A stretch of 64,000 nt of DNA from an uncultured Bacilli bacterium (GTDB taxonomy: Bacteria; Bacillota_I; Bacilli_A; RFN20; CAG-826), in the NCBI GenBank assembly GCA_905236715.1, contig CAJOMQ010000007.1:3254-67253 (forward strand). Direction: 5' to 3'. This document shows, piece by piece, positions 2,881 through 62,966 of the stretch (positions within the stretch are counted from its first letter, which is position 1; every line of letters begins with the position of its first letter). The notes beneath the pieces were generated by a model. It was not told the DNA's origin, did not search any database, and worked only from the letters and a program-made list of their open reading frames with translations. The translations under genes and the position numbers were made by a program.

Positions 2881-3215
2881 AACCGATAAACGAAATTGAC
2901 CAAAAAGATTTTAATTTTTCTTCGCTTCTTAGTACTGGTTTAATTATTTTGTCCACATTTTCTATAATGGGTATTTTTGCGCTTCTTCTTTTGAAGACTG
3001 ATGTTTTTTAATAATGTTGCATAGAACACTTGTCATATAATTTTAATGAGAAAAACTTGGTTTTAAACAAAAGAACGAAAAAAAAGTACAATGCATTATA
3101 CTCATTATACTTTTTCATTAACTTCGTCATTCTATTATTTTTGTCTTTTATTGTGTTTCTCTTTATAATGTTAATAACTAAATTAAGAAGTTATTAAATC
3201 AAAATGGAGCCAAAT

Positions 3216-4520
3216 ATGAAAACTGTTTATATTGCTATGTCCACGGATATCTTACACGAAGGGCATATTAACGTGATTAATGAAGGCGCTAAATACGGAG
3301 AAGTCATTATCGGTTTATTAAGCGATAAGGCTATCGCCGAATATAAAAGAATGCCTTTATTATCTTTTGAAGAAAGAAAACTCATCTTTGAAAATATCAA
3401 AAATGTCACTAAAGTCGTCAAACAAGATTCTTTGGATTATACCGATACCTTACAACAATTAAAACCAGATTACGTGGTACATGGTGATGATTGGAAAGAA
3501 GGAGTTCAACAAGAAACTAGAGCCAAAGTCATCGAAACTCTTAAAGAGTGGGGCGGACAATTAATCGAAGTACCATATACCCATGGTGTTTCCGCTTCCG
3601 AAATTGAAAATAAAGTCCGCAAATTATATAGCACACCCGATAGAAGACGTGCGGCATTAAAAAAGATGATTAACGCGAAACCCTTTATCCGTGTCTTAGA
3701 AGCGGATAATGGTTTAACTGGTCTTATTGATGAAACAACATTTGTCATTGACCCTAAAACAGGCTTTCGAAAAGAATTTGATGCCATGTGGGTATCATCA
3801 TTATGTGATTCCACGTTTAAAGGCAAACCCGATATCGAATTAGTGGATCAAACTAGCCGCATGAACACGATTAATGAAATTATGGATGTCACCACAAAAC
3901 CCATCATCTTAGATGGTGATACCGGTGGTAAAGTAGAACATTTTGTTTTTAATGTAAAGACATTAGAAAGAATGGGTGTCTCCGCGATTATTATCGAAGA
4001 TAAAACTGGTTTAAAACAAAATTCATTATTTGGTACCGAAGTCAAGCAAGTGCAAGAAGACCCCGATGTTTTTGCCGATAAGATTAGAAGGGGCAAATTA
4101 GCGCAGGTGACAAAAGACTTTATGATTATTGCCCGTTGTGAATCATTAATCGCTGGTCAAGGTATTGAAGATGCTTTATTTAGATGCCGTAAATATGTCG
4201 CCGCGGGTGCGGATGGCATTATGATTCATTCCAAAGAAAAAGATGGACAAGAAATCTTTGCCTTTATGGCGGAATTCCGCAAAGAATTCCCCTTTGTCCC
4301 CATCATCTTAGTGCCTACTTCCTATAATCAATTCACCGAAGAAGAATTATGTGAAAAAGGCGCGAATGTGATTATTCACGCTAATCACTTGGTGAGAAGT
4401 GCTTTCCCCGCGATGAAAAAAACCGCCGAAAGTATTCTCTTACATGGTAGAAGTAAAGAAGCGAGTGATGAATATTGTATGTCGATTAAAGACATCATCA
4501 CTTTAATCCCTAAGGAATAA
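3216..4520 (+). CDS. Bifunctional cytidylyltransferase-like domain / phosphoenolpyruvate mutase (Fom1-like architecture)
   Basis: The N-terminal ~135 aa resemble TagD-type cytidylyltransferases (HxGH as LHEGH, YTHGVSASEI). The C-terminal ~290 aa carry PEP mutase motifs (EADNGLTG, DGDTGG, EDKTGLKQNS). I prefer ATG 3216 because GGAG lies 6 nt upstream; the track ORF starts at 3204. Confidence 0.85.
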   Translation: MKTVYIAMSTDILHEGHINVINEGAKYGEVIIGLLSDKAIAEYKRMPLLSFEERKLIFENIKNVTKVVKQDSLDYTDTLQQLKPDYVVHGDDWKEGVQQETRAKVIETLKEWGGQLIEVPYTHGVSASEIENKVRKLYSTPDRRRAALKKMINAKPFIRVLEADNGLTGLIDETTFVIDPKTGFRKEFDAMWVSSLCDSTFKGKPDIELVDQTSRMNTINEIMDVTTKPIILDGDTGGKVEHFVFNVKTLERMGVSAIIIEDKTGLKQNSLFGTEVKQVQEDPDVFADKIRRGKLAQVTKDFMIIARCESLIAGQGIEDALFRCRKYVAAGADGIMIHSKEKDGQEIFAFMAEFRKEFPFVPIILVPTSYNQFTEEELCEKGANVIIHANHLVRSAFPAMKKTAESILLHGRSKEASDEYCMSIKDIITLIPKE

Positions 4521-4527
4521 TATACAT

Positions 4528-5640
4528 ATGGTTGATACATTACATTTTTATCAATATTTAATAGAAAACAATTTAGATTTTTTTACTGGTGTACCTGATT
4601 CTTTATTAAAAGAATTATGTGCCTATATTAAAGATAATAGTGACGCTAAACACAACATCATTGCCGCGAACGAAGGTAACGCCATTGCTTTAGCGTCCGG
4701 TTATCATTTATCCACTGGTAAATTAGGTGTGGTTTATATGCAAAATAGTGGAGAAGGTAACGCTGTTAACCCCCTCCTCTCTTTAGCGGATCCGAAAGTC
4801 TATTCCATTCCAATGTTATTAATCATTGGCTGGCGTGGTGAGCCAGGAGTGCATGATGAACCACAACATGTTAAACAAGGTGAAGTCACTTTGAAATTAT
4901 TAGAAGCGATGGATATTGAATATCGCATTCTTTCTGATAATTATGAAAATGATTTATCTTCTTTAATTTCCTTAGCGAAGAAAGAAAATAAACCGGTTGC
5001 CTTGGTTATTAAAAAAGGTACATTCTCTAAATATCAACCCATCAACAAAGACAAAATTAATATGGGTGAATTATTAAGAGAAGAAGCTTTAGAAGTGATC
5101 TTAAAAGAAATTGGCGATGATATGGTGGTATCCACAACTGGAAAAGAATCACGAGAAATATTTGAAATAAGAGAAAGATATGAACAAGGACATGGCCATG
5201 ATTTTCTCACTGTTGGTAGTATGGGACATACTTCTTCGATTGCTTTAGGTGTCAGTATTGGCACTAATAAAAATGTTTGGTGTTTAGATGGTGATGGTAG
5301 TTTTATCATGCACATGGGTTCTTTAGCTATCGTTGGACAAAATGCAGGAGATAATTATAAATATATCATCAATAATAATGCCGCTCATGAATCTGTCGGT
5401 GGTCAACCAACAGTCAGCGATAAAATTGATATCAAACAAATCTTAACAGCGTGTGGTTTTGATAAAGTTTATGAAGCGAGAACTAAAGAAGAAATCAAAA
5501 CTGCTATTAACAATATGAAAAAAGATGGCAAATCCGCGTTGATTTTATATACCAAACAAGGCAGTCGTGATGATTTAGGCCGTCCCACAACGACACCCAT
5601 TCAAAATAAAGAAGCCTTTATGGAGACTATTAAAAAATAA
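4528..5640 (+). CDS. Phosphonopyruvate decarboxylase (ThDP-dependent)
   Basis: The ThDP-binding motif is GDGSFIMHMGSL...NN. The N-terminus FFTGVPDSLLK is typical of Ppd/Fom2/AepY. The protein is 370 aa and the gene sits immediately after the PEP mutase gene. Confidence 0.85.
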   Translation: MVDTLHFYQYLIENNLDFFTGVPDSLLKELCAYIKDNSDAKHNIIAANEGNAIALASGYHLSTGKLGVVYMQNSGEGNAVNPLLSLADPKVYSIPMLLIIGWRGEPGVHDEPQHVKQGEVTLKLLEAMDIEYRILSDNYENDLSSLISLAKKENKPVALVIKKGTFSKYQPINKDKINMGELLREEALEVILKEIGDDMVVSTTGKESREIFEIRERYEQGHGHDFLTVGSMGHTSSIALGVSIGTNKNVWCLDGDGSFIMHMGSLAIVGQNAGDNYKYIINNNAAHESVGGQPTVSDKIDIKQILTACGFDKVYEARTKEEIKTAINNMKKDGKSALILYTKQGSRDDLGRPTTTPIQNKEAFMETIKK

Positions 5641-7391
5641 TGAAAGCTTTAATATTTAATTCCGGTATCGGTAAAAGGATGGCGGAACTTACCGCGAATA
5701 ATCCTAAATCCATGGTGCATCTATATAATGATGAAACCATTTTTGAAAGACAAATTAGACTTCTCCAAGAAGCGGGTATCACCGAAGTTATCATTACCAC
5801 TGGTCCATATCCAGAGATGTTAAAAAATATATGCGCAAAGTCGTGTTATAAGAACATGCATTTTTATTTCCCTCATAACGAGATATATGACGCTTCTAAT
5901 TATATTTATTCCATGTATAAGGCGAGAGATTATATCGATGATGATATTTTAATGATGCATGGTGATTTGGTCTTTGATCGCACGTTAATACCGCAGATAT
6001 TAAAAAACCCCGAAGAAAACCTCTGCTTAATTAATAAATATAAACCTCTTCCCGAAAAAGATTTTAAAGGAAGAATTATCAATAATGAATTAAGAGAAGT
6101 TTCAATCAATATCTTTGATAGTGATTGTTATGCTTTTCAGCCATTATATAAATTATCTTATAAAGTCATCAAAAGATGGTTAGATAATGTTATTAAATAT
6201 GTGAAAAATAACAACATCAATGTTTATGCAGAAAACGCTTTAAACGAAGTCGCGGAAGGACTTCATATTAGACCCTTTTCTTATCAAAGACATTTTATTG
6301 ATGAAGTGGATAATATTGATGATTTAAATCGCGTTAACACAGAGATTCAATCTTGGGATTATCAAAAACAAAGCATAAAAATAACCACTGAATATTTATT
6401 ACCTTTAAAAACACAGTTAAAGAAAATCAATAGTGAGAAACCTTTTATTGTGGTGGACCATTTCTTAAAAAAAGAAATCGCACAAAAATTACCACAAGGT
6501 GTCGTTTTTTCTTCTTTCACCCCTAATCCAAAATATGAGGAGATGTTAGAAGGATTGAAATTATTTAAAAGTAGTGGGTGTGATTCCATTGTCTCCATCG
6601 GTGGTGGTTCTTGCATTGATGTGGCTAAAGTCATCAAATTATCTCTTAATACTGACCTTACTAGTGATATTCCCACTTTCCAACAAACATATCACTATAA
6701 CCATATCAAACATATTTGTTTACCCACCACAAGTGGCACTGGTAGTGAATCAACTAGACACGCAGTCTTATATCTAGATGATATAAAACAATCAATATCT
6801 CACCCCACCTTAGTGCCTGATTATGTCTTATTATGCGCGAAATTTATCTATACTGTCCCTCCTTATCAAAGAAAAGCCACAATGATGGATGCTTTATGTC
6901 AATGTATGGAATCTCTTTGGTCCAAAAAAGCCACCAAAGAAAGTCGTAGATACGCATTAAAAGGAATAAGACTAATAAAAGATAATTATAAGGATTATAT
7001 AGAATTAGATAAGAAGGGTATGAAAAATATCCAAATCGCGGCGAATTATTCTGGTAAAGCCATCAATATCAGTGAAACCACTGCCGCGCATGCGATGAGT
7101 TATAAATTAACTTCTTTATATCATATCCCCCATGGTCATGCGGTCGCGATATGTATGAACGCTATATTACATAATTGTCATGTAAAGACAAAATATAAAG
7201 ATATAGATATAGAGAAATTATTCTATGATATCGTGGATGATTTCCAACTAGATATGTATCCAGAAATCAAAAAAGAAGATCTTCCTCTTCTTGTTGATTC
7301 TGTTAATCCTATTAGATTAAAGAATTTTCCATATCACATTAATATTAAAAAATGTTATTCAAGTATCATGAATCAAATAAATAACAAATAA
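5640..7391 (+). CDS. Fusion of a LicC-like nucleotidyltransferase and an iron-containing alcohol dehydrogenase (putative phosphonoacetaldehyde reductase)
   Basis: The N-terminus ALIFNSGIGKRM is an NTP-transferase G-x-G-x-R loop. The C-terminal half carries Fe-ADH motifs GGGSCIDVAKV, PTTSGTGSE and HAMSY...PHGHAVA. The start overlaps the stop of the previous gene (TAATG). Confidence 0.8.
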   Translation: MKALIFNSGIGKRMAELTANNPKSMVHLYNDETIFERQIRLLQEAGITEVIITTGPYPEMLKNICAKSCYKNMHFYFPHNEIYDASNYIYSMYKARDYIDDDILMMHGDLVFDRTLIPQILKNPEENLCLINKYKPLPEKDFKGRIINNELREVSINIFDSDCYAFQPLYKLSYKVIKRWLDNVIKYVKNNNINVYAENALNEVAEGLHIRPFSYQRHFIDEVDNIDDLNRVNTEIQSWDYQKQSIKITTEYLLPLKTQLKKINSEKPFIVVDHFLKKEIAQKLPQGVVFSSFTPNPKYEEMLEGLKLFKSSGCDSIVSIGGGSCIDVAKVIKLSLNTDLTSDIPTFQQTYHYNHIKHICLPTTSGTGSESTRHAVLYLDDIKQSISHPTLVPDYVLLCAKFIYTVPPYQRKATMMDALCQCMESLWSKKATKESRRYALKGIRLIKDNYKDYIELDKKGMKNIQIAANYSGKAINISETTAAHAMSYKLTSLYHIPHGHAVAICMNAILHNCHVKTKYKDIDIEKLFYDIVDDFQLDMYPEIKKEDLPLLVDSVNPIRLKNFPYHINIKKCYSSIMNQINNK

Positions 7392-7442
7392 TTTTATTTT
7401 TTGTTATATTACTAATATATAAAAGAAGGATGATGAAAGATT

Positions 7443-8738
7443 ATGAAGAGATGTAAATGGTTATTACCAATCGCCTTGGTTACTTTATTAATGGGATGTA
7501 ACCAGAGAAATAAAAAAGATGATTCTAGTGATGATCCCGCGCCCGCGATTGGATGGTCAGAAGAAGTCAAATCAGAGATGCAAAAATATTTAGGTGAAAT
7601 ATTACCTTATGCTCCCTTAAATGAAGAAACTTTATATCATACGTACGATGATTCTTATGAAGATTATGGATTTGGCGTTTATATTATTGGCGATGATAAC
7701 GAGGTCAATGTTTTAGAAGAAATTAATTATTCCTCTTTACTCATTGAAGCCGGCTTTAGTGAAGAAACCGAAGACGATACTATTTATTACACCAAAGATA
7801 TTGGTGATGACACTTTAGAAGTGGTGTTTCAATATTTTGAAGAAACCGATGAATACGCCGCGGGAAATGAAATAGATGTTTATTGCCCCGTTTATTCTGA
7901 ACCCACTAGTGAACAAGACCTCATTGATGATGGTTATACCAAACAACTTGGCTGGCCCACTGAATTAGTCGCAAACACTTTAAATGGCTGTGATATTACC
8001 ATCACTGGTGTAAATACTTCTGGCTATTGGTTTGTTGCCACTGAGAAATACGAAGATACCGATGAAGGATATTATTACGAATGTTTATATTTAGCCACTG
8101 AAGGTGATTATGTTGATGAATTTGTTTCCGCTTTACCAAGTGTCTTAGTGTATGACGAAGATTGGGATGATTATTACGACGAAGTATCCGAAGTAGATGT
8201 TGAGGTTTCTTTTGATGGAACATTTACTTTTATTAATATCTATGGGCCAACATTAGATTTAGAAATCGAAATAAATGATGATATATCTGGCGAAGAAAAT
8301 GTCGATGGTAAAATCGTGGTCACTTATTCTTTAGCTAGTTTAAGTGGTTACACTGATAACACTTCGTTTGATGGAGTAACCCTCACTTCCGAAAATACTT
8401 CTTTATCTTTTAGCAAAGGCAGTGGACAATCTAATCCCGCTTTTTATAGCGCTAATGGTGTGAGATTTTATTTTGGAAATTCTATTTCCATCAACTCCAC
8501 TGGTTCATATAACATTGAAAAAGTGGAATTTAATTCTATTACGAGAAATTCTGGTAAAGCAGTCACTACAGCCTTTTTAGAGGCTAGTGTGGGCACATTA
8601 AATGTGACTGATAGCTCCGCTTCAATTAATGATGTTAATGCTAAACAAACTACCCTTTCAATAACCAAGAAACCATCTGGAGTTACCTCCACTGGTGGTT
8701 ACCTTGTTTTTGACGAAATTGTCATTACTTTAGCCTAA
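7443..8738 (+). CDS. Acidic surface lipoprotein of unknown function
   Basis: A signal peptide with lipobox LLMGC is followed by a D/E/Y-rich region that looks internally duplicated. Confidence 0.7.
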   Translation: MKRCKWLLPIALVTLLMGCNQRNKKDDSSDDPAPAIGWSEEVKSEMQKYLGEILPYAPLNEETLYHTYDDSYEDYGFGVYIIGDDNEVNVLEEINYSSLLIEAGFSEETEDDTIYYTKDIGDDTLEVVFQYFEETDEYAAGNEIDVYCPVYSEPTSEQDLIDDGYTKQLGWPTELVANTLNGCDITITGVNTSGYWFVATEKYEDTDEGYYYECLYLATEGDYVDEFVSALPSVLVYDEDWDDYYDEVSEVDVEVSFDGTFTFINIYGPTLDLEIEINDDISGEENVDGKIVVTYSLASLSGYTDNTSFDGVTLTSENTSLSFSKGSGQSNPAFYSANGVRFYFGNSISINSTGSYNIEKVEFNSITRNSGKAVTTAFLEASVGTLNVTDSSASINDVNAKQTTLSITKKPSGVTSTGGYLVFDEIVITLA

Positions 8739-8759: not shown

Positions 8760-8794
8760 AAATAAAAACGTGCCTCTGTGCACGTATTTTATTA
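8760..8794. terminator. Bidirectional rho-independent terminator between convergent genes
   Basis: The hairpin is ACGTGC-CTCTGT-GCACGT (8768-8785). An A-run lies on the left and a T-run on the right. Confidence 0.6.
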
Positions 8795-8823: not shown

Positions 8824-9675
8824 TCAAGGGACATATTGGCCGTTTCTATTATAGACAACACTGCCGTTGCTACAAGAAATAGTGACGTTACCAGTCGCAC
8901 CCGTAAAGAATGTATATCCACCTCCATATTCAGCAGCGGAAGCAGCAATTAAGTCTATAAATTGAGTAGTGGTGCCAGCAAAACTAATATTGGTTGTGAC
9001 GTTAGTGTTGTTCATCTTAAAGGCGTGGTTGCCAAGATATTCTAATGAAGCTGGCAAATTAATATTAACCTCAAGAGTTCTATTTGAGGTGATATTTTGG
9101 AAGGCATCATCACAAACAAGATGATAACCCTCAGGGACATTAATCGTACAAGTGAGGTGTGAAAGAAGTGGAGGGAGCGGTCTTTCAATGTTGATATTAA
9201 GGGGTTCATAAAGCCCTTTAATTGCGTATGATTGACCATTTATCGTAATGGAACTAGGCAAAGTAGTCACTGCATCATTGTCAACCCATACGATATATGA
9301 ATTACATAGATTAGTACCAGTATATTTGATAACTTCTAATTCGCCATCAACAACACCAATTTCATAGGAAATGGAACCGCCAGCAGCGACAGGGTTTTGA
9401 CCATCTGGGTATGTGATAGAAGCTCCAGGGACTTCAACGTCATCAATATATACTTTTCCATTATTATCAACTCTAATGACTTGGCCTTCTTCGATTGGTA
9501 AAGGATCTTGGAATTCCCAAGTAGGAACTTGTACACCATTATTAAGAGTTGTTTCGTTACTATTATTGAAAATCCATGCCGCATGGCCCACACCAAAACC
9601 AATAGCCCCGACTGTGACTATTGATAAAGCTATTAAGGCAATCTTATTTGCGGTATTAACTTTCTTGAGCGACAT
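8824..9675 (-). CDS. Secreted/surface protein with SipW-type N-terminal signal and C-terminal BspA-like leucine-rich repeats
   Basis: The N-terminus is KIALIALSIVTVGAIGFGVGHAAWIFNN. The C-terminus has repeats of the form ...IN.P.....LG.HAF..N... The gene overlaps the upstream peptidase gene by 20 nt. Confidence 0.55.
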   Translation of the reverse strand: MSLKKVNTANKIALIALSIVTVGAIGFGVGHAAWIFNNSNETTLNNGVQVPTWEFQDPLPIEEGQVIRVDNNGKVYIDDVEVPGASITYPDGQNPVAAGGSISYEIGVVDGELEVIKYTGTNLCNSYIVWVDNDAVTTLPSSITINGQSYAIKGLYEPLNINIERPLPPLLSHLTCTINVPEGYHLVCDDAFQNITSNRTLEVNINLPASLEYLGNHAFKMNNTNVTTNISFAGTTTQFIDLIAASAAEYGGGYTFFTGATGNVTISCSNGSVVYNRNGQYVP

Positions 9676-10597
9676 CCTCTTTTTCCTTTTCTTCTTGTGG
9701 CAAGATCACAGTTAATCTTTCGTTATAAATCTTTTGAATCTTATTAGAATAAATCGTGGAGATGGTAATCATTCCTAAGCATCCCGCTAAGGAATAGATA
9801 CCAAAGACAGATGATAAGAATAAGATGAAATAACCCATGAATTGCACTTTATTCGTGCCATTATAGACACCTCTTAAAGAATTATATGTAACTAGTTGAT
9901 ATTGACTGGGGTATAAGTCACCTTGCATCATATAGGAGAATTGTTCTTCACCTTGTGAATTGGTGTAGACATCAATCTTCACCAAACGGTGTACCACAAT
10001 CATATCTTGGTATTTAAAGGCGAATACTTTATTTAAATAATCACTAGCGATGGAATGGGTGAAATTAACACCATTATCCACGTAATAATAATTTCCATAT
10101 TCATCACGTGAGATGATTTCATCTTCGCTAGGTAATGATTTGATAACTAAAATATCACCGCGTTTAAATTCTTCTTTGAGCATCTCATCAGTAATATGAC
10201 CACCGTTTTCAGCTTTTTGATGATACAAATCATTTTCTTTATCACCGATTCCCGACATGGAATTAGAAGCGATAACTAAAGATGATGTATTACCAATAAA
10301 TATCATATTGTTATTGACATGAGTCACGGTGGCAAAAACAACTCCCACTAGCATTAGTGCAGAGAAGGCATAAACAAAACCATGTAGTACACCAAAAACT
10401 ACATTCTTTGTTTTGTGCTTTTTCTTGTCTTCTATCTTTTTATGGTGTTCTTGGATGATTTCGGAGTCTCTCTTGCCCAAATCAACCAACGCTTTCTCAG
10501 ATTTTTTAATCAAGTGGAAAGCGGTGATTGATAGAGCAAAAATCATCGAAGTGATAATGACAAGGATAATAATCAATACGACTATTTCTCCACTCAT
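9656..10597 (-). CDS. Signal peptidase I of the SipW/Sec11 (Ser-His, ER/archaeal) type with an extra N-terminal TM helix
   Basis: The motifs are SNSMSG (catalytic Ser box), RGDILVIK, VVHRLV (His box) and MQGDLYPSQ. A C-terminal TM helix is present, as in SipW. Confidence 0.6.
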   Translation of the reverse strand: MSGEIVVLIIILVIITSMIFALSITAFHLIKKSEKALVDLGKRDSEIIQEHHKKIEDKKKHKTKNVVFGVLHGFVYAFSALMLVGVVFATVTHVNNNMIFIGNTSSLVIASNSMSGIGDKENDLYHQKAENGGHITDEMLKEEFKRGDILVIKSLPSEDEIISRDEYGNYYYVDNGVNFTHSIASDYLNKVFAFKYQDMIVVHRLVKIDVYTNSQGEEQFSYMMQGDLYPSQYQLVTYNSLRGVYNGTNKVQFMGYFILFLSSVFGIYSLAGCLGMITISTIYSNKIQKIYNERLTVILPQEEKEKEDVAQES

Positions 10598-10634
10598 GTC
10601 AAAAATACTTCAATATGAAGAATTAATTTAATAA

Positions 10635-11240
10635 TTAGGCTTGGATACCAAATGTGAAGTTTAAAGCTAATGTTTTGCCGGTGAAAGCTGTTTTCATCGC
10701 ATCAACTTCTGCAACTGTTGTAGGAATATTTGCAGCGACATATTCATATGTTGGTAATGTATATGTAGCTTCGTAAACAGTTTCATCTGTGACATCTTGA
10801 ACATCATCAGCCAAAGAACCTTCGGTAAAGGAAACATAACCGGTGGTTTCTAATTGGTCGTTTTCGGTAACTTTGAATTCGACTTTTTCTTCGTCATCGC
10901 CAAAATGTAAATGTTCTTCGTTGTGAACGATGGTACCTTTTAAAGTGAGTTCAGTAATTTCATCTGATCCATCAGCTTTGGAAGAGAAGAAAATACCTGC
11001 GCCAGCTTTTCTTGTGGAAGTGCCAGTGGTTGGAGCATCTAAAATGATGTATAAGGTTTCGATTTCAGTTGAACCATTGTAGACTTTGACGTTATCGGCA
11101 CCGATAGCGCATGTCACTTTGGCTTCGCCACTAGCGCTGTCAGTGACAGTGTTGGTGAATGTCCAGGCAGCAAAACCTGTACCAACTAAAGCTAAGGAGC
11201 CTAAGCCGGAAATAAGAGCAATTTTTGTAGATAATTTCAT
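10635..11240 (-). CDS. Secreted beta-rich protein with SipW-dependent-type signal peptide (TasA/camelysin-like signal; mature part unassigned)
   Basis: The N-terminus MKLSTKIALISGLGSLALVGTGFAAWTFTN resembles the TasA signal, which as I recall reads ...LALVGGGTWAAFND. It is the first gene of the minus-strand operon. Confidence 0.5.
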   Translation of the reverse strand: MKLSTKIALISGLGSLALVGTGFAAWTFTNTVTDSASGEAKVTCAIGADNVKVYNGSTEIETLYIILDAPTTGTSTRKAGAGIFFSSKADGSDEITELTLKGTIVHNEEHLHFGDDEEKVEFKVTENDQLETTGYVSFTEGSLADDVQDVTDETVYEATYTLPTYEYVAANIPTTVAEVDAMKTAFTGKTLALNFTFGIQA

Positions 11241-11605: not shown

Positions 11606-13045
11606 ATGGCGGAAAAACGTGATTTAGAACAACAAGTTGAACAATACGAAAAAGATCTTGCCAATAGCGATCCAAAAAAGAAAAAGAAATCGACTATTAA
11701 GTATATACTTAATATTTCTCTTGTTTTAATTGTTACTGCGGTATCTATTACCCTTACGTTATGGGGTAATTTTAATAATATTCTTGCTAATTTACTCAAA
11801 TGTGACTGGAGATGGCTTTTAGCCATCGTTGGTGTCATGGGATTATCTATTTTAATCCGTTCTTTCATTTTATATTGCTTTGCTCGTTTATTTACTCGTG
11901 ATTATAAATTCCGTCAAAGTATTGCCTGTGACCAAATTGGTCAATTTTATAACGCAGTCACTCCTGGTGCCAGCGGTGGGCAAATTATGCAAGCATACAC
12001 ATATAAAAAACAAGGCGTGCAAATCTCTAGCGCGGTTAGTGCATTAGCGATGTATTCCATCATGTATCAGATTGTTTTAATTATTTATAACATCATTGCT
12101 TTCATCTTTAAATTTGACGCCATTATGAGCATTGATGTCGCTGATATTACCATTGGAGGATTTACCATACATTTACCGATTTTAGTTTTAACAATAATTG
12201 GATTTGTTTTAAACCTCGGAGTTATCTTACTTGTGCTTTTAATGGGTTATTGGCATGGTTTCCATAATTTTATTATGGGACCGATAATTGGTTTATTAGC
12301 GAAAATCCACATTTTAAAAAATCCTGATAAAACCAGAGAAAATTTGCGTGTTCAAGTGGAAAACTTCAAAATTGAATTCCGTCGATTGATTACGAACATC
12401 CCATTCTTTATTTTGGTATTTGTCTCTTTTGCGGTTTATATCACTGTCAAATTTTCTGTTCCTTATTTCTGTGGTTTGGCTTTGGGCAGTGAACATTATC
12501 AAATGAAATATTTTTGGGATAGTATTTTCTTAGGCAATTATCACCAAATGGTGACAGGCCTTATTCCTATTCCTGGTAGTGCCGGTGTATCCGAATATTT
12601 CTTCCTTACATTGTTCTATAACCGCGCAGAACCCTCCGCGGGATTCTTCTATAAATTTGCTTACGCTGATACAGCGATAGAATGTGAATCGATGACCAAA
12701 GCGGCACTACTTATTTGGCGTTCAATCACATTTATTATTCCTATTACTGTCGCTGGTTTTACTACTGCCTTTTATCGTGCTTCACCAAAACAAGAAATTC
12801 AAGAAAGAGACGATATTCTCAATCGTGGCACTTTTGTCAATTTGCAAAAAGAAACTTATGTTATGCGTAAAGAAGAAGTGGATGCCTTGGTTAACACCAC
12901 GAGATTATCGCGTCAAGCTGTCAGAGATAAATTATTTAATGCCCAAAATAGGAAGAAAAAAGACAATACGATAAATGAAAACGCCACTCCCGGAAGGGTG
13001 AGCGATGGTGACTATTCAAATGTGAATATTGAAGAGGACGAATAA
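11606..13045 (+). CDS. Flippase-like membrane protein (UPF0104 / lysyl-phosphatidylglycerol synthase TM-region family)
   Basis: The protein is polytopic. It carries the family-typical motif YNAVTPGASGGQ after the second or third TM helix. Confidence 0.65.
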   Translation: MAEKRDLEQQVEQYEKDLANSDPKKKKKSTIKYILNISLVLIVTAVSITLTLWGNFNNILANLLKCDWRWLLAIVGVMGLSILIRSFILYCFARLFTRDYKFRQSIACDQIGQFYNAVTPGASGGQIMQAYTYKKQGVQISSAVSALAMYSIMYQIVLIIYNIIAFIFKFDAIMSIDVADITIGGFTIHLPILVLTIIGFVLNLGVILLVLLMGYWHGFHNFIMGPIIGLLAKIHILKNPDKTRENLRVQVENFKIEFRRLITNIPFFILVFVSFAVYITVKFSVPYFCGLALGSEHYQMKYFWDSIFLGNYHQMVTGLIPIPGSAGVSEYFFLTLFYNRAEPSAGFFYKFAYADTAIECESMTKAALLIWRSITFIIPITVAGFTTAFYRASPKQEIQERDDILNRGTFVNLQKETYVMRKEEVDALVNTTRLSRQAVRDKLFNAQNRKKKDNTINENATPGRVSDGDYSNVNIEEDE

Positions 13046-14226
13046 TGAGAATCGCTATTTTCACTGATACATATCCTCCCTTTATTAATGGTGTTTCTAC
13101 ATCCACATATAATTTAGTGAACACCTTAAGAAATCACGGGCACGAAGTGCTCGTTGTTTCTCCACGTGTTGACGATGGGCCTTTCTATTTCGATGAAAAA
13201 AATGGCATGATCTATATTCCTGGTTTGGAATTAAAGAAGATATATGGATATCGTTTGACTAATATTTATTCCAATAAAGTGGTGAAGATTTTGCGCGCTT
13301 TCAAGGTACAGTTAATCCACAATCAAACTGATGTTGCTATTGGACAATTTGCCCGTCTTGCCGCGCGTAATTTGAAAGTGCCAATTGTTTACACCTATCA
13401 CACAGCGTATGAAGATTATACGTATTATGTTGTGAGAGGTCTCATGGACCGTATGGCCAAACACATTATGCGTGGATATGCGAAAACCACGGCAAAAAAT
13501 TGTACGGAATTTATTACCCCAAGTTTAAAAACAAAAGAATATATGCGTTCTCTTGGTAGTGATATTTATGTGAATGTTGTTCCTACGGGTATTGATTTTG
13601 CTTTATTTGATGAAAAAAATATCAATAAAGAAAGAACCGCTCTTTTTAAAAAAGAAAATCATATTAATGAAAATACCAAAGTCTTCCTTTTATTAGGTCG
13701 TGTAGCCCAAGAAAAGAGCATGGATTATTCCATTCGTGGATTTGCTAAATATCACAACAAACACCCAGAAGATGATATTAAATTATTGGTGGTGGGTGAT
13801 GGTCCACAAAAAAATGAATTGGAATTATTAACACATGAATTAGGTGTGGATCATTTAACCGATTTTATCGGTAAAGTACCAGCGGAAGAAGTGCCGTTTT
13901 ATTATCATTTAGCGGATATTTATACTTCCGCTTCGATTACGGAAACCCAAGGTCTCACATTTATGGAAGCAATGGCTAGTGGAACGATTGTTTTAGCCCG
14001 TTTTGACGCTAATTTAGCGGATACTATTACCGATGGTGAAACCGGTTTCTTTTTCACCAGTGAAGAGGGATTTGTGAATAAAGCGGAAAGAATATTCTCA
14101 TTAAGTAAAGAAGAAAGACAAGAAGTTATTGATGCCGCCTTCGCGCGCGTAGACATGTATTCTATTGAAAGATTTTATAATAACATAATGGAGGTATATC
14201 ATCGTGCCATCAAAAAATATTGGTAA
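13045..14226 (+). CDS. GT4-family glycosyltransferase, probable diacylglycerol glucosyltransferase (glycolipid synthase)
   Basis: The N-terminus MRIAIFTDTYPPFINGVSTS and the E-x7-E region ETQGLTFMEAMASG fit the family. It resembles Acholeplasma/Firmicute monoglucosyl-DAG synthases (from memory). The start overlaps the upstream stop (TAATG). Confidence 0.7.
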   Translation: MRIAIFTDTYPPFINGVSTSTYNLVNTLRNHGHEVLVVSPRVDDGPFYFDEKNGMIYIPGLELKKIYGYRLTNIYSNKVVKILRAFKVQLIHNQTDVAIGQFARLAARNLKVPIVYTYHTAYEDYTYYVVRGLMDRMAKHIMRGYAKTTAKNCTEFITPSLKTKEYMRSLGSDIYVNVVPTGIDFALFDEKNINKERTALFKKENHINENTKVFLLLGRVAQEKSMDYSIRGFAKYHNKHPEDDIKLLVVGDGPQKNELELLTHELGVDHLTDFIGKVPAEEVPFYYHLADIYTSASITETQGLTFMEAMASGTIVLARFDANLADTITDGETGFFFTSEEGFVNKAERIFSLSKEERQEVIDAAFARVDMYSIERFYNNIMEVYHRAIKKYW

Positions 14227-27648: not shown

Positions 27649-27671
27649 AATAAGTGCAATATAATAAAAGC

Positions 27672-27779
27672 ACTTCAGGGTGACGAGAATTACGTCAACT
27701 GGCGGTATAGCCCGCGAGCTTATCAAAGCATGATTAGGTGAAATTCCTAAGCCAACGGTAAAGTCCGGATAGCAGAAGT
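27672..27779 (+). promoter_or_regulatory. FMN riboswitch (RFN element) aptamer
   Basis: The conserved blocks are CUUCAGGG...CGGCGGUAUAGCCCGCGAGC...GAUUAGGUGAAAUUCCUAAGCCAACGGUAAAGUCCGGAUAGCAGAAG. P1 is formed by ACUUC/GAAGU. It lies upstream of a RibU-like transporter gene. Confidence 0.9.
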
Positions 27780-27793
27780 TAATTGCTATTTAT

Positions 27794-27825: not shown

Positions 27826-28599
27826 ATGAGTTCAGCTGATTTTCAACAATTTATGAGTTGGTTTAAGTGGGTGCTGATGGGTATCCTTCTGCTCATTGTT
27901 GTCGGTTTAATTATTTTCTCAATTTTTAATTACAAAAAGAAAAATATTAATACCGTCAAATTTATCGCGGTGACTGGCATATTCGGAGCTTTAGCCACCA
28001 TCTTGTATGTTGTGGTACCTGATTTTGGTTTAGGTTTTACGCCACCCTGGTTAAAAGTTCATTTAGATGAAATACCCATCTTTTTAGTGGGATACATGTA
28101 TGGACCTTTATCCGCCATCATTGTTACTTTAATTAAAACGTTAGTGAAACTACCCATGACATCCACCGCGTGTGTGGGAGAAATTGGTGATTTCTTCTTC
28201 ACCTTAGTGTTTGTTTTACCCGCCATTATCATTTATGAAAAAAGAAGAAAAATTTCTTCCGTTTTTATCGGTATGGGAGTATCTAGCACTCTTCAAGTCA
28301 TCTTTGCGATGATCATGAATATTTATGTGATGATTCCTTTCTATTCCACTTTATATAATTTGCCATTAGAAGCATTAGAGGGAATGTGTTCCAAAATTAT
28401 TCCTGCCGTCAGTGGAGAAAATTGGGTATACATGTATGCTGTTTGCATGGTCTTACCGATGAATGTTATCAAAGATAGTATTGTCTTTGCGGTCGTCCTA
28501 CTAATTTATAAACGACTACATATACTTATCGATAAAATTGGTCGCAAGAATGAAAAGATAGAAGAAAAAGCCGAACCATCGGCTTCTAGAGAGAATTAA
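27826..28599 (+). CDS. ribU: ECF-transporter S component, riboflavin-specific (RibU-like), with an extra N-terminal TM helix
   Basis: The protein is polytopic and follows an FMN riboswitch directly. At 257 aa it is longer than the usual ~190 aa, because of an additional N-terminal hydrophobic segment. Confidence 0.7.
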   Translation: MSSADFQQFMSWFKWVLMGILLLIVVGLIIFSIFNYKKKNINTVKFIAVTGIFGALATILYVVVPDFGLGFTPPWLKVHLDEIPIFLVGYMYGPLSAIIVTLIKTLVKLPMTSTACVGEIGDFFFTLVFVLPAIIIYEKRRKISSVFIGMGVSSTLQVIFAMIMNIYVMIPFYSTLYNLPLEALEGMCSKIIPAVSGENWVYMYAVCMVLPMNVIKDSIVFAVVLLIYKRLHILIDKIGRKNEKIEEKAEPSASREN

Positions 28600-35449: not shown

Positions 35450-35786
35450 ATCCGATCTGGATAATTGCTGCTTTATAGTAGAGGAAAGTCCATGCTCGCA
35501 CAGGCTGTGATGCCTGTAGTGATTGCGCTAGCGGAAAAAATAACGCTAGGCACGCAGGAGTGCGTGACGGCAGAGTAAGACCTAAAGGGAAACCCATGGT
35601 GGAGCTCTTGAAAGTGCCACAGTGACGAAGCTTTATAGAAATATAAAGGTGGAACGCGGTAAACCCCACAAGCGAGAAACCCAAATTTGGTAGGGGAAGT
35701 TGAAACTGGGAAACGAACTAGAATCAACAGGCTTAGCCTAGATAAATAATTATCCTAGACAAAACATGGCTTACAGGATCGGATAC
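35450..35786 (+). ncRNA. rnpB: RNase P RNA, type B
   Basis: The conserved blocks are GUAGAGGAAAGUCCAUGCUCGCAC, GUGCCACAGUGACGAAG, GGUGGAACGCGGUAAACCCC...GCGAGAAACCCAAAUUUGGUAGGGGAA and AACAUGGCUUACAG. P1 is formed by AUCCGAUC (35450-57) and GAUCGGAU (35777-84). Confidence 0.93.
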
Positions 35787-35799
35787 TCACTAAATCATT

Positions 35800-36876
35800 A
35801 TGAATACACCCACAAAAATTACTATCTCTCGTATTGCTGCTATTGTCATTATTGTTGTGACTTTATTTGTGTTTTCTATCATCAGTCAAACCAATCCTGA
35901 TTTTGTCATTCCCAATATTGGTAACACGGGCATAAATTGGTTATATCTTGGTTTATTTGTGTTTTTCTTATTAGCGTCATTTACCGATTTTTTGGATGGT
36001 TTTTTAGCCAGAAAAAATCACCAAGTGACTGATTTAGGAAAATTTTTAGACCCCGTTGCTGATAAATTATTAGTCAATTCCATGGTCATCTTTTTGGTTT
36101 TCCCATGGCGTTTTGTGCCTGATCAAATGACCTTCTCTATTTGGTGTGCGATTATTCTTGTCGGTCGTGACATTGTCGTTGACGCTTTAAGATTTATTGC
36201 CGCGCAAAAAGGAGTGGTTATCGCCGCGAATATTTTTGGTAAAGTCAAAACCGTCTTAGAGATGGTGGCTATATGTTTAGTTTTATTAAATAGCTGGCCA
36301 TTTAATTATTTTGACAACCATTGGGTTGCGAAATCATTCGTCTATTTAGCGACATTAGCCTCTTTTGTTTCTGGCTTAATTTATGTCATCCAAAATCGTC
36401 ATGTTTTCAAAGAAAATAAATTCAATACGAAAAATCTCAAAGAATATTTTGTGCAAGAAGGTAAAACATTAGGTTCTATTGAATCCTTTACTGGTGGTTT
36501 ATTCGCTAGTGAAATAACCAAAATCGCCGGTGCCAGTAATTACTTCAAAGGCACGATGGTGACCTACGCTAGTGAAGAAAAAGAAAGATTATTAGATATT
36601 CCTCATGATGAAATAGGAAAATATGGAGTGGTGAGTGAACAAATAGCCTACGCGATGGCGGAAAAAGGTCGTCAAAAACTACAAGTTGATGTCTGTGTTT
36701 CCTTTACTGGTAATGCGGGACCAACCGCCATGGAAGATAAGCCTGTGGGAGAAATATATATTGGTATTTCTGATGCTTCTGGTACCAAAGTCTTCCCATA
36801 TCAACTTTCTGGTAATCGAAAAAATATTCAGACACAAGCTATAAGCTTGGCGATTGAACAATTATTAAAAAAATAA
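35800..36876 (+). CDS. pgsA: Fusion protein: CDP-diacylglycerol-glycerol-3-phosphate 3-phosphatidyltransferase (PgsA) plus a CinA C-terminal (PncC-like deamidase) domain
   Basis: The N-terminal CDP-alcohol phosphatidyltransferase motif is DFLDGFLARKNHQVTDLGKFLDPVADK. The C-terminal ~160 aa carry ESFTGG and SFTGNAGP, which are typical of CinA-C. Confidence 0.8.
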   Translation: MNTPTKITISRIAAIVIIVVTLFVFSIISQTNPDFVIPNIGNTGINWLYLGLFVFFLLASFTDFLDGFLARKNHQVTDLGKFLDPVADKLLVNSMVIFLVFPWRFVPDQMTFSIWCAIILVGRDIVVDALRFIAAQKGVVIAANIFGKVKTVLEMVAICLVLLNSWPFNYFDNHWVAKSFVYLATLASFVSGLIYVIQNRHVFKENKFNTKNLKEYFVQEGKTLGSIESFTGGLFASEITKIAGASNYFKGTMVTYASEEKERLLDIPHDEIGKYGVVSEQIAYAMAEKGRQKLQVDVCVSFTGNAGPTAMEDKPVGEIYIGISDASGTKVFPYQLSGNRKNIQTQAISLAIEQLLKK

Positions 36877-58592: not shown

Positions 58593-58619
58593 AACAATAT
58601 TCTATGCTTTATTAGGCAA

Positions 58620-58650
58620 AAGAAAAAGCAGAACCAATGATGGCTCTGCT
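58620..58650 (-). terminator. Terminator after lemA
   Basis: On the minus strand the hairpin is AGCAGAGCC-ATCATT-GGTTCTGCT (one G-U pair), followed by TTTTTCTTTT. Confidence 0.65.
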
Positions 58651-58666
58651 CTCACCATTTTGTCTA

Positions 58667-59329
58667 TTAGAAGAAGACGTCTCTTGCTTTTTCTTTGATT
58701 TCCTTCGTGGTGGTAAAAGGAATACGAGTGGTATAACCACGTTTGGCGGCCATATATTGTTTGGCTGGCCATTCATAGACGGCTTTATTCCATTGATTGA
58801 CTGTATCGTTATAAACTTCACGAGCAGCGGTAATTTCTCTTTGCAAATAAGAATTTTGTTGCATCGCATCAGCGATTTCGGCATGGGATTTTAATTCCGG
58901 ATAATTTTCCATCGCGACATTAATTTTTGCATTGACCTTTTCAATCGCACTGGCGGCTTCATTTAATTTATTCGTGCCACTTCCCGCACGTAATTCCGCA
59001 ATTTTAGTGAATGTTTCTTTGTCTAAATCAATCGCTTTATCTAGTAATTTCGCGGTGTTTTGTAAAATCATTACTCTTTGTTCGAGATAATTATCAATTT
59101 GGGATGCATCGTGTTGAATCTTTTGTTGTAATTGGGATAAATATTTACCCGCGTTTACTTTGACAATGGTCCAAATGATACCACCGATAATGGGAGGTAA
59201 GAACCACATAATAATATTAAAGAATTTGGTTCCGCCACCAATGGTGATGGGAATTTGTTTATCGATAACATTAACATCTCTACCCTCTTCTCTTGGGGTT
59301 GCTGTTGTTTCATCTAATTCATTAGCCAT
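58667..59329 (-). CDS. lemA: LemA-family membrane protein
   Basis: One TM helix is followed by LemA-like helices (NYPELKSH....QREITAAREVYNDTVNQWN....WPAK). Confidence 0.8.
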   Translation of the reverse strand: MANELDETTATPREEGRDVNVIDKQIPITIGGGTKFFNIIMWFLPPIIGGIIWTIVKVNAGKYLSQLQQKIQHDASQIDNYLEQRVMILQNTAKLLDKAIDLDKETFTKIAELRAGSGTNKLNEAASAIEKVNAKINVAMENYPELKSHAEIADAMQQNSYLQREITAAREVYNDTVNQWNKAVYEWPAKQYMAAKRGYTTRIPFTTTKEIKEKARDVFF

Positions 59330-59332
59330 GAT

Positions 59333-61174: not shown

Positions 61175-61204
61175 AAATTAAGTATAACAAAAAAGTTGCT
61201 TTTA

Positions 61205-62068
61205 TTAAGCAACTAAATGTTTATATGCTTCTTGTGCATTTTTCATGAAATAATCAGCGACATCTAAGAAATTAAATTTGGTCGCTCTTCCCTCACCACG
61301 ATAATGTTTGATAAGAGCCACGTTATGCCACTGTAAGGAAACAAATAAGCGCCAGAGATAATATCTTCTAATTTCATCTTCGGTTTCTAAGCCACCGAAA
61401 TAAGCGGTGAGAAGTTCTCTTCCTTCCGCGACATCTCCGTTACCATATGTGGCAATATCATAGATAGGATCATTATTGCCCATAAATTCAAAATCAATAA
61501 TGTAATATTTATTTGTCTTGTCTTCTTTGATGATGTTACTTTTTTGTGCATCATTATGGCACAAGCAGAGTTCTTGTGATTCTAAATACTCTTTATTATC
61601 CATCAATAATTGACGATATTTGAGATATTCCGCACTTCTTTTTTTGATATAAGAATTAGCTTCTTTTTCATATGATTCTAATCTTCTAAAGGGGCAATAA
61701 TCAGCTTGGCATTTAATCGAGGAATTATGGAGATATTTCATGACTCCCGCGACATAATCCAAATTGATATCTTCTTTATCCATTTTATCGAGGGGTTGTC
61801 CTTTGATAAATTCATTTATCTTGATGCCTTTATCGGGATCAAAATAAACATTTTTGCTCGTTAATCCTAAATTATAGACAATCCGTTGATTATCTTTTTC
61901 TAAATAACGGTTGACCATTTCATTAGCGTGCACCGTGGGCATATAAAGAATGTATTCTTTGCGGCGATTTTCAACGATAAAAGATTCATTCATCATACCA
62001 CCCATGATTTGGTTAACGATATGAGCGTCTTTACCTAATACTTGTTTAATAATTTCATCACGTTCCAT
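61205..62068 (-). CDS. Choline/ethanolamine kinase-family phosphotransferase (LicA-like)
   Basis: The Brenner motif is LCHNDAQKSNII and the choline-kinase-like motif is IIDFEFMGNNDPIYDIA. The start is uncertain: I chose ATG 62068, while the track uses GTG 62086. Confidence 0.7.
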   Translation of the reverse strand: MERDEIIKQVLGKDAHIVNQIMGGMMNESFIVENRRKEYILYMPTVHANEMVNRYLEKDNQRIVYNLGLTSKNVYFDPDKGIKINEFIKGQPLDKMDKEDINLDYVAGVMKYLHNSSIKCQADYCPFRRLESYEKEANSYIKKRSAEYLKYRQLLMDNKEYLESQELCLCHNDAQKSNIIKEDKTNKYYIIDFEFMGNNDPIYDIATYGNGDVAEGRELLTAYFGGLETEDEIRRYYLWRLFVSLQWHNVALIKHYRGEGRATKFNFLDVADYFMKNAQEAYKHLVA

Positions 62069-62115
62069 GACTATTAATATAATCACTTTTCAAAGAAAAG
62101 ACTACAATAATGTAG

Positions 62116-62958: not shown

Positions 62959-62966
62959 AATTAATT

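Follow-up and report, generated by a model that had tools for sequence, protein, structure and literature searches.

In the fosfomycin pathway of Streptomyces, Fom1, Fom2 and FomC convert phosphoenolpyruvate (PEP) through phosphonopyruvate, phosphonoacetaldehyde and 2-hydroxyethylphosphonate (HEP) into cytidine monophosphate (CMP)-activated HEP (CMP-HEP). Fom1 is a fusion of a cytidylyltransferase (CyTase) with PEP mutase (Ppm), and its CyTase domain has been shown to form CMP-HEP from HEP and cytidine triphosphate (CTP) in vitro (PMC9088020, PMC6697681); FomC, like PhpC, DhpG and AglG of other antibiotic pathways, is a reductase of the group III alcohol dehydrogenase (ADH) family. Here, we analysed a stretch of 64,000 nucleotides (nt; hereafter the window) from contig CAJOMQ010000007.1 of an uncultured Bacilli bacterium (assembly GCA_905236715.1), which carries a three-gene cassette at positions 3204-7391 predicted to carry out the same four reactions, with a Fom1-like CyTase-Ppm fusion and a FomC-like group III ADH. 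The cassette differs from the fosfomycin pathway in having no Fom3, FomD or Fom4, in an extra LicC/PntC-like nucleotidyltransferase (NTase) fused to the reductase, in its low-GC anaerobic host and in its context, which in relatives is surface-glycan synthesis and not secondary metabolism. We propose, with a probability of about 0.7, that it is a self-contained CMP-HEP supply module feeding the decoration of surface glycoconjugates.

A second parallel is provided by the PntC-AEPT protein Tde1415, a fusion with 2-aminoethylphosphonate (AEP) transaminase, and the Pnt clusters of Treponema denticola, Atopobium rimae and Olsenella uli (PMC6697681). As there, a LicC-like domain precedes an enzyme that converts phosphonoacetaldehyde, Ppm carries a second, fused nucleotidyltransferase, R15 and K25 of PntC are conserved, and LicD-type genes lie near, in our case near the relatives of the cassette; LicD-type transferases also neighbour the AEP clusters that Rice et al. 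examined (PMC6697681). Unlike in Tde1415, the partner domain is a reductase leading to HEP and not a transaminase leading to AEP, Glu104 is replaced by an invariant His, and the similarity is low (E 3e-6). The LicC/LicD route to phosphocholine on the teichoic acids of Streptococcus pneumoniae likewise combines a small CMP- or CDP (cytidine diphosphate)-activated head group with transfer by LicD, a parallel seen in relatives whose NTase-ADH is fused to one or two LicD domains; the cassette, however, would build a carbon-phosphorus (C-P) head group de novo instead of by uptake and phosphorylation, and the window has no LicD. The predicted end product, glycan-esterified HEP, resembles the HEP exopolysaccharides of Stackebrandtia nassauensis and Glycomyces and the HEP of marine high-molecular-weight dissolved organic matter (cited in PMC8942020 and PMC13576164). 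Those cases are actinomycete or marine, their activation and transfer enzymes are undefined, and no NTase-reductase fusion has been reported for them.

The original prediction, made from the DNA sequence alone, knew of no such pathway in a small low-GC genome. This novelty was overstated, since CyTase-Ppm fusions, two-NTase clusters, PntC fusions, the HEP branch and HEP polysaccharides are all published and the cassette itself is common. The HEP branch point occurs in 8.5% of ppm neighbourhoods, Ppm-CyTase fusions make up 23.6% of Ppm, and both triple fusions and nucleotidyl activation as the dominant logic have been described (PMC6697681, PMC8942020, PMC13576164); clusters with two such nucleotidyltransferases were remarked on, without explanation, by Rice et al. 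(PMC6697681) and Li & Horsman (PMC8942020). The cassette is a variant of known pathway logic and leaves the logic of phosphonate biosynthesis unchanged. Two features appear to be undescribed, the fusion of NTase to reductase and the His-type clade of PntC-like enzymes presented below; neither was found in the literature on CMP-HEP outside the fosfomycin field, PntC-LicD and HEP-glycans, of which our coverage was incomplete.

Organization of the cassette

The three open reading frames (ORFs) on the plus strand are packed as an operon, with 7 nt between ORF1 and ORF2 and a TAATG overlap joining the ORF2 stop to the ORF3 start. Coordinates and strand are those originally predicted, every motif quoted at the time was recovered by motif search, and the domain calls were confirmed by Pfam and NCBIfam matches with E-values far beyond chance. 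ORF1 has two in-frame ATG codons, at 3204 and 3216. The latter is probably the true start, because GGAG lies 6 nt upstream and the resulting protein of 434 amino acids (aa) matches the length of the ORF1 homologues. The features of the cassette are as follows.

3204-4520, plus strand: ORF1, CyTase-PEP mutase, 438 aa, probable true start ATG 3216
3222-3623, plus strand: CyTase domain of ORF1 (aa 7-140), with HEGH at 3255-3266 and YTHGVSAS at 3576-3599
3657-4514, plus strand: Ppm domain of ORF1 (aa 152-437), with DGD at 3912-3920, EDKTGLKQNS at 3996-4025, the Arg of IIARCES at 4125-4145 and the His of MIHSKE at 4221-4238
4528-5640, plus strand: ORF2, predicted thiamine diphosphate (ThDP)-dependent phosphonopyruvate decarboxylase (Ppd; TIGR03297), 370 aa, with GDGSF at 5290-5304 and INNN at 5368-5379
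5640-7391, plus strand: ORF3, His-type LicC/PntC-like NTase with predicted PhpC-type reductase (PF00483, PF00465, PF25137), 583 aa
5640-6359, plus strand: NTase domain of ORF3 (aa 1-240), with R13 and K23 in NSGIGKRM...NPKSM, H107-G-D109 at 5958-5966, D141, K143 and Y196-A-E198
6387-7388, plus strand: group III (Fe/Zn) ADH domain of ORF3 (aa 250-583), with GGGS at 6600-6611, metal ligands D417 and Q421 (6888-6902), H484 and H498, and Y488 within 7083-7112

ORF1 and ORF2 match PEP mutase, Fom1-type cytidylyltransferase and phosphonopyruvate decarboxylase

The C-terminal domain of ORF1 matches PF13714 PEP_mutase (E 1e-49) and scores 373 bits against the NCBIfam equivalog TIGR02320 PEP_mutase (cut-off 319.6), whereas models of its paralogues remain far below their cut-offs (phosphonopyruvate hydrolase, 128 vs 374; PrpB, 81 vs 354); TIGR02320 scores above the phosphonopyruvate hydrolase, methylisocitrate lyase and carboxyphosphoenolpyruvate mutase families. 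The mutase residues are present (DGD, aa 237-239; EDKTGLKQNS, aa 265-274; R311; H342; MWVSSL), and alignment with the Mytilus (1m1b) and Streptomyces (5unc) PEP mutases showed that the Mg- and substrate-binding residues are conserved. By these features the domain is a genuine PEP mutase, and the possibility, raised with the original prediction, of a lyase-type paralogue devoid of catalytic residues is contradicted by intact residues and by lyase models that stay below cut-off.

In the N-terminal domain, aa 15-134 match PF01467 CTP_transf_like (E 1.3e-13), and HEGH, an HxGH motif, lies at aa 18-21. Compared with the Fom1 CyTase structure 5x3d (phmmer E 1.9e-47), 68 of 134 residues are identical (51%), and the domain very probably also cytidylylates HEP. 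The proposed fusion of an HxGH CyTase to a Ppm with the EDKxxxxxNS motif was borne out by TIGR02320, PF01467 and the motifs themselves. On this homology, ORF1 is an enzyme that works like Fom1, yet outside any fom cluster.

ORF2 carries two ThDP domains (Pfam) and scores 456 bits against the equivalog TIGR03297 phosphonopyruvate decarboxylase (NCBIfam; cut-off 312.5). In the PDB it matches both subunits, alpha and beta, of phosphonopyruvate decarboxylase (9iz3). The TIGR03297 score and the motifs GDGSF and INNN agree with the earlier call of a ThDP-dependent Ppd, which had been based on GDGSF...NN.

The ORF3 reductase domain carries the diagnostic tyrosine of PhpC

The ADH domain of ORF3 matches PF00465 Fe-ADH (E 4e-32) and PF25137 ADH_Fe_C and contains GGGSCIDVAKV (GGGS, aa 321-324) and PTTSGTGSE. 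Together with a PF00483 match in the N-terminal domain, this is the fusion of an Fe-ADH to a LicC-like NTase that had been predicted. The AlphaFold model of ORF3 had a predicted local distance difference test (pLDDT) of 89 and a predicted template modelling score (pTM) of 0.86. Both sequence and fold searches placed Bifidobacterium kashiwanohense sulfoacetaldehyde reductase (6jko) among the best matches, and it is the solved structure nearest to the ADH domain; the fold search used full-length ORF3, and its matches were dominated by the ADH domain and uninformative for the NTase domain.

The substrate of the B. kashiwanohense enzyme (6jko/6jkp) is the sulfonate analogue of phosphonoacetaldehyde, and the two enzyme types have been told apart at the metal site. 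According to a 2026 study of HEP dehydrogenases (PMC13576164, section 2.8), PhpC uses Asp191/His195/His260/His274 and sulfoacetaldehyde reductase Asp192/Gln196/His261/His275, and the residue four positions after the third ligand (His+4), a strictly conserved Tyr in PhpC, is Phe in the sulfoacetaldehyde reductases. In ORF3, D417/Q421/H484/H498 share the +4 and +14 spacing of the PhpC ligands, with Gln in second place like the Asp/Gln/His/His Zn site of 6jko. Unlike in that enzyme, His+4 is Tyr and not Phe (HAMSY, with Y488, aligned to HACSF), and the genomic context is Ppm and Ppd. D417, Q421, H484, Y488 and H498 are invariant across 32 homologues, and His+4 is Tyr in 84 of the 87 ADHs fused or adjacent to the NTase family; the second metal ligand in these associated ADHs is Gln in 75 and His in 23. 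Invariance extends to K383, T480 and R559, whose offsets are those expected for K157, Thr256 and R349 of PhpC, of which K157 and R349 clamp the phosphonate; this putative equivalence is one of spacing and not of alignment to PhpC. The ADH gene adjoins ppm and ppd here and in all related loci. Because the published diagnostic Tyr is present, the domain is regarded as PhpC-like and predicted to be a PhpC-type phosphonoacetaldehyde reductase.

The ORF3 nucleotidyltransferase domain falls in a His-type clade

ORF3 aa 2-119 match PF00483 NTP_transferase with 32.9 bits (Pfam cut-off 21.2), and aa 1-240 match LicC (1jyk, E 8e-8) and the PntC-AEPT of Tde1415 (6pd1, E 3e-6) over the full domain length. 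In Tde-PntC, R15A and K25A were made by mutation, K153 was the third residue mutated, and Glu104 is one of two carboxylates touching the AEP amine (PMC6697681, Glu104 in section 8), the head-group pocket consisting of Glu104 and Glu196. R13 and K23 of ORF3 correspond to R15 and K25 and are invariant in the subfamily, and Glu196 is kept as E198, while Glu104 is replaced by His107, with His found in 132 of 133 aligned subfamily representatives. In this 133-sequence alignment R13, K23, D109, D141, Y196, E198 and D224 vary little or not at all, and K143 (in EKDFKGR), also invariant, may match K153, in a region where the alignment is unreliable. Since Glu104 is replaced by His across the subfamily, specificity for AEP is unexpected. 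A separate NTase-LicD protein at a related locus (L008) has Glu-Ser-Asp, like Tde-PntC.

When the domain was searched against 1.8 billion representative proteins, 174 representatives were found at E<1e-30. The best 150 of these 174 comprised about 58 NTase-ADH fusions, 5 NTase-ADH-LicD fusions (one of them bearing two LicD domains), 80 stand-alone domains and a few NTase-CyTase-Ppm fusions, and contained no NTase-AEPT fusion. As judged from these comparisons, the ORF3 NTase belongs to a distinct His-type clade of PntC-like enzymes.

Members of the clade include triple fusions of NTase, phosphonoacetaldehyde reductase and LicD of 878-912 aa (L003, 10001-12676; P0128, P0135, P0138 and P0182) and a protein of 1228 aa (P0161) in which NTase and reductase are followed by two LicD domains. 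In a protein of 612 aa (P0124), an N-terminal His-type NTase 56% identical to that of the window is fused to a Rhomboid intramembrane protease.

Relatives of the cassette lie beside surface-polymer loci

Searches of genome collections gave ten loci, and 13 relatives were annotated. The identical three-gene order occurs in rumen and gut metagenome-assembled genomes (MAGs) labelled 'Bacilli bacterium' and in Christensenellaceae, and the arrangement of the window recurs on contigs from three samples. A different fusion is found in MAGs of Ruminococcus, Bacteroidaceae, Eubacteriales and Clostridiales, where a 669-aa protein joins the His-type domain to CyTase-Ppm and the ADH is a separate protein. 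The cassette of the relatives sits at the end of Wzx/Wzy or teichoic-acid-like (TagGH/TagF) loci. Its flanks hold Wzy, Wzx, glycosyltransferases and amino-sugar genes in L014, EpsG, three glycosyltransferase family 2 (GT2) genes, Wzx and LicD in L021, Rml genes, a GT4 gene, a TagF-like gene and Wzx in L022, and TagF-like genes, TagGH-like ATP-binding cassette transporter genes and LicD in L002 and L003, the ORF3 homologue of L003 being an 891-aa NTase-ADH-LicD fusion. In L001 and L014 the cassette is flanked by a sulfotransferase-like gene. The comparison of gene neighbourhoods suggested with the original prediction thus showed a cassette that is syntenic in relatives and tied to glycan or teichoic loci; it is a portable module plugged into differing surface-polymer loci.

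A metagenome scan, with an alignment of 12 stand-alone members as query, detected at least 528 loci, and 80 of these were retrieved. Ppm, Ppd or Fe-ADH accompanies the NTase subfamily in 46 of the 49 loci of at least 4 kb (94%); 40 of the 49 have an Fe-ADH, and 19 have a LicD or TagF-like gene. No class-V aminotransferase of the AEP transaminase type was found in the 80 loci, a weak test made by phmmer with the SufS of the window only, and no class-V aminotransferase-like gene is present in the 13 annotated relatives. Three loci, possibly from one lineage, combine a plain 295-aa Ppm with Ppd and NTase-ADH, the last carrying the only nucleotidyltransferase detected. Relatives of the cassette number in the hundreds; it is common in metagenomes from gut, rumen and sediment and also occurs in those from digesters.

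Variants of the module were also seen. In five sediment clusters (L055, L058, L059, L060 and L083) the N-terminal CyTase of Ppm is replaced by a C-terminal PF12804-type NTase, and a stand-alone His-type NTase is retained beside the ADH. The cassette of L001 (7583-8881) is a mosaic. Identity to the window is 85% for Ppd and 75% for NTase-ADH but only 57% for CyTase-Ppm, which is nevertheless 79% identical to the Ppm part of a Bacteroidaceae triple fusion (L008), suggesting recombination within the module. The sulfotransferase-like proteins of L014 (6537-7562, 341 aa) and L001 (3801-4868, 355 aa) have a weak sulfotransferase-domain match, and their loci, both Bacilli polysaccharide loci, lack LicD and TagF-like genes; they could be unrecognised phosphonyl transferases or true sulfotransferases. 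The cassettes of L021 and L022 border defence islands with a cyclic oligonucleotide-based antiphage signalling system (CBASS), a reverse transcriptase, AbiH and an OLD-like gene.

A predicted pathway from PEP to a decorated surface glycoconjugate

In the proposed pathway, the C-terminal domain of ORF1 would isomerise PEP to phosphonopyruvate, and ORF2 would decarboxylate phosphonopyruvate to phosphonoacetaldehyde, drawing the unfavourable mutase equilibrium forward. The C-terminal Zn/Fe ADH of ORF3 would then reduce phosphonoacetaldehyde with NAD(P)H to HEP. HEP and CTP would give CMP-HEP, for which the His-type domain is most likely the universal activator and the ORF1 CyTase would also be able. 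Lastly, a phosphotransferase encoded outside the window, of LicD or TagF type in relatives, would place the hydroxyethylphosphonyl group on a surface-glycoconjugate hydroxyl. The first three steps are predicted from family membership and diagnostic residues, the fourth from homology to two characterised cytidylyltransferases and from gene fusion, and the fifth, with the nature of the acceptor, would follow the pattern seen in relatives. The His-type domain is taken as the main HEP activator because the reductase is its constant partner and because it can be the sole nucleotidyltransferase. The fusion series ADH-NTase-LicD mirrors the consecutive reactions, that is, reduction, activation and transfer.

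The chemistry originally predicted, up to a nucleotide-activated HEP, is supported by the equivalog matches of Ppm and Ppd, the PhpC-type Tyr, the 51% identity to the Fom1 CyTase and the context of the NTase clade. The absence of an aminotransferase, a radical S-adenosylmethionine (SAM) methyltransferase and an epoxidase, on which the prediction had relied, holds for the window. The only class-V aminotransferase is SufS in the suf operon, with no AEP transaminase present, the only radical-SAM protein is MiaB-like, with no Fom3-like methyltransferase, and no epoxidase appears in the gene inventory. Neither tailoring genes nor an AEP transaminase were found here or in about 90 related loci, in agreement with the view that the product is neither an antibiotic nor AEP. 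The suggested destination is only partly supported: in relatives the cassette is linked to Wzx/Wzy and teichoic-like loci and not demonstrably to a glycolipid, lipoglycan or protein, and the window encodes no transferase.

Surroundings of the cassette in the window

Three further features adjoin the cassette.

3141-3169, plus strand: promoter-like TTGTCT-17-TATAAT found by consensus scan, about 35-45 nt upstream of ORF1
7443-8738, plus strand: acidic lipoprotein gene, 431 aa, lipobox LLMGC, 51 nt after ORF3
8768-8785, both strands: bidirectional terminator-like hairpin, ending the plus-strand unit and a convergent minus-strand gene

The promoter is a candidate only, because such sites are no more frequent in this region than in shuffled sequences. 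Between 7391 and 7443 there is no terminator-like site, a promoter-like site lies at 7381-7410, and the lipoprotein gene is possibly co-transcribed with the cassette. The lipoprotein belongs to no Pfam or NCBIfam family, and no homologue lies beside the cassette in the compared loci (L001-L010 and L014). Beyond it, the products of three consecutive minus-strand genes (8824-11240) each have an N-terminal membrane segment and fall in no Pfam or NCBIfam family; in two of these proteins the segment is closely followed by G-x-G-x-A-A-W-x-F, a hint that they share a signal for processing or sorting. Assignment of one of them (9656-10597) to SipW-like signal peptidases was unsupported by any profile library. 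Because they have no family and no homologue beside the cassette elsewhere, the lipoprotein and the three minus-strand genes were left out of the proposed system.

Directly upstream of the cassette (634-2641) lie genes for an AbiLi-like AAA_21 ATPase (padloc, 185 bits) and a partner of 227 aa that weakly matches OLD-like TOPRIM, and further upstream one for an nSTAND3 protein. About 4 kb downstream (11606-14226), the genes for a flippase-like membrane protein (PF03706/TIGR00374) and a GT4 share one nt. The best family of the GT4 is the Acholeplasma-type alpha-monoglucosyldiacylglycerol synthase NF049988 (230 bits vs a cut-off of 400), and the two are likely a pair for glycolipid synthesis and flipping. 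A flavin mononucleotide (FMN) riboswitch (27667-27784, 80.6 bits) precedes the S component of an energy-coupling factor (ECF) transporter (27826-28599), which presumably imports riboflavin. Class B RNase P RNA (35453-35778) is followed by a gene for PgsA fused to a CinA/PncC-type domain (35800-36876), just upstream of recA. This PgsA-CinA was considered as a CDP-alcohol-type phosphonate transferase and rejected, being an ordinary pgsA product with a TIGR00560 score above cut-off. A minus-strand group at 55845-63941 comprises genes for YfhO, LemA, a 613-aa MAG1210-family protein, a kinase of ChoK/APH fold, and PlsC-like and DagK-like proteins; the kinase (61205-62086) was also rejected as LicA, since its best families are unrelated kinases with scores far below cut-offs.

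Housekeeping genes elsewhere in the window include suf, gidAB, der, recA, rny, miaAB and argS, and YfhO and DivIVA are encoded as well. The window has a GC content of 35%, TGA serves as stop in 7 of 48 long ORFs, and the MAG1210-family match reaches 604 bits, the family being named after a Mycoplasma agalactiae locus. The 'Mollicutes-like' character ascribed to the genome is plausible in view of the 35% GC, the MAG1210-family protein and the class B RNase P, although these fall short of proof and UGA is a stop codon; a Mollicutes-related host with the standard genetic code is a reasonable description.

Alternative explanations

Several points weigh against the proposed supply module. The evidence is computational throughout, two NTase domains predicted for one reaction are unparsimonious, and for the His-type domain the choice of CTP over another nucleoside triphosphate is assumed; almost every locus retains both NTase domains, variously fused. 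The ORF3 NTase scores 25.3 bits on PF12804, just below the gathering score of 27, and K153 of Tde-PntC has no clear aligned counterpart. The ADH domain reaches 118 bits on TIGR03405 Phn_Fe-ADH (the PsrA clade), the only Fe-ADH model specific to phosphonates, vs a cut-off of 423.7, and by this score is outside the proteobacterial TIGR03405 clade; as a test for phosphonate-specific ADHs the model was discarded as non-discriminating, several unrelated Fe-ADH families also scoring about 118 bits. Moreover, no candidate phosphonyl transferase was found in the 64-kb window: tblastn queries from relatives, comprising one LicD domain, two TagF-like and two sulfotransferase-like proteins, reached a best E of 0.64 only, and a deacetylase-like protein, also from relatives, found nothing either.

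Because no transferase is present within 64 kb, the module could be an orphan or a remnant in this genome, separated from the glycan locus and transferase that it serves in relatives and producing free HEP or CMP-HEP without a dedicated acceptor, or unexpressed. This would also fit its upstream neighbours, which are defence genes (AbiLi-like, nSTAND3) where L001, L007, L014, L021 and L022 have glycan genes. However, the three ORFs are intact with all catalytic motifs kept, the same arrangement is found in three samples, and a transferase could sit elsewhere in the genome, beyond the window; an orphan is improbable. Somewhat better placed, though still unlikely, is attachment of the head group to a membrane lipid or glycolipid, as a phosphono-glycolipid or lipoglycan, and not to a Wzx/Wzy or teichoic-type polymer. 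No polysaccharide genes lie next to the cassette in the window, while the flippase-like TIGR00374 protein and the monoglucosyl-diacylglycerol synthase-like GT4 (NF049988) are encoded four kb downstream, a DagK-like, PlsC-like and ChoK-like group lies at 61.2-63.9 kb, and the MAG1210 family points to Mollicutes affinities of the host. Against this, the GT4 stays under its 400-bit family cut-off, no enzyme passing HEP to a lipid was found, the sole CDP-alcohol transferase being the ordinary PgsA (TIGR00560), and every informative relative ties the cassette to glycan or teichoic-type loci.

The architecture of the cassette and its 51% identity to the Fom1 CyTase, with ORF1, ORF2 and the ADH corresponding to Fom1, Fom2 and FomC, would also suit the front end of a fosfomycin-like small-molecule pathway, CMP-HEP being the substrate of Fom3 (PMC9088020). 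Such a pathway is most unlikely, as the window has no Fom3-like B12 radical-SAM enzyme, FomD, Fom4, HEPD/MpnS-type oxygenase, ATP-grasp enzyme, non-ribosomal peptide synthetase (NRPS) or resistance gene, and in relatives the cassette lies within glycan loci and is joined to LicD. Also very unlikely is AEP as the final head group, made by a transaminase encoded elsewhere with the ADH providing a side or salvage reaction, or a LicC-like domain that is a true phosphocholine cytidylyltransferase serving the ChoK-like kinase at 61205-62086. LicC is indeed the best PDB match of the NTase domain, a ChoK/APH-family kinase lies within the window, and among phosphonate head groups AEP is the most frequent by a wide margin (PMC8942020). 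But class-V aminotransferase-like genes are missing from the 80 metagenome loci (by the weak test above) and the 13 annotated relatives, the amine-binding Glu104 is His throughout the subfamily, the subfamily is fused to a reductase and lies in phosphonate clusters in 94% of loci, and the best families of the kinase are GntI and thiamine kinase, all far below cut-offs.

The proposed supply module could also be extended to a joint reading, which we regard as speculative. The two NTases would then be non-redundant, serving two activated species or two fates of HEP; lineages with TagF and TagGH would make a HEP polymer, and the present host would decorate a glycolipid or lipoglycan. If so, CMP-HEP would be an analogue of CDP-glycerol, acting as donor and acceptor where TagF-like polymerases and TagGH exporters flank the cassette, and the product would be poly(hydroxyethylphosphonate) or a HEP-interrupted teichoic-acid-like polymer with phosphatase-resistant C-P linkages. 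The host, if wall-reduced and Mollicutes-related, would decorate its glycolipid or lipoglycan via a transferase of a yet unrecognised type.

Biological significance

HEP is plentiful in nature, and routes dedicated to its breakdown are widespread, including in rumen Fibrobacteria (PMC13576164). HEP producers are poorly defined beyond actinomycetes and marine Thaumarchaeota, and the cassette is a candidate source of glycan-bound HEP. The His-for-Glu NTase clade and the PhpC-type Tyr together would provide a sequence marker separating HEP-type from AEP-type surface decoration. ORF3 is expected to take phosphonoacetaldehyde to CMP-HEP within one polypeptide, and the NTase-ADH-LicD fusions of its relatives are expected to run from phosphonoacetaldehyde to the decorated acceptor, making phosphonyl transfer, the least understood step, accessible to testing.

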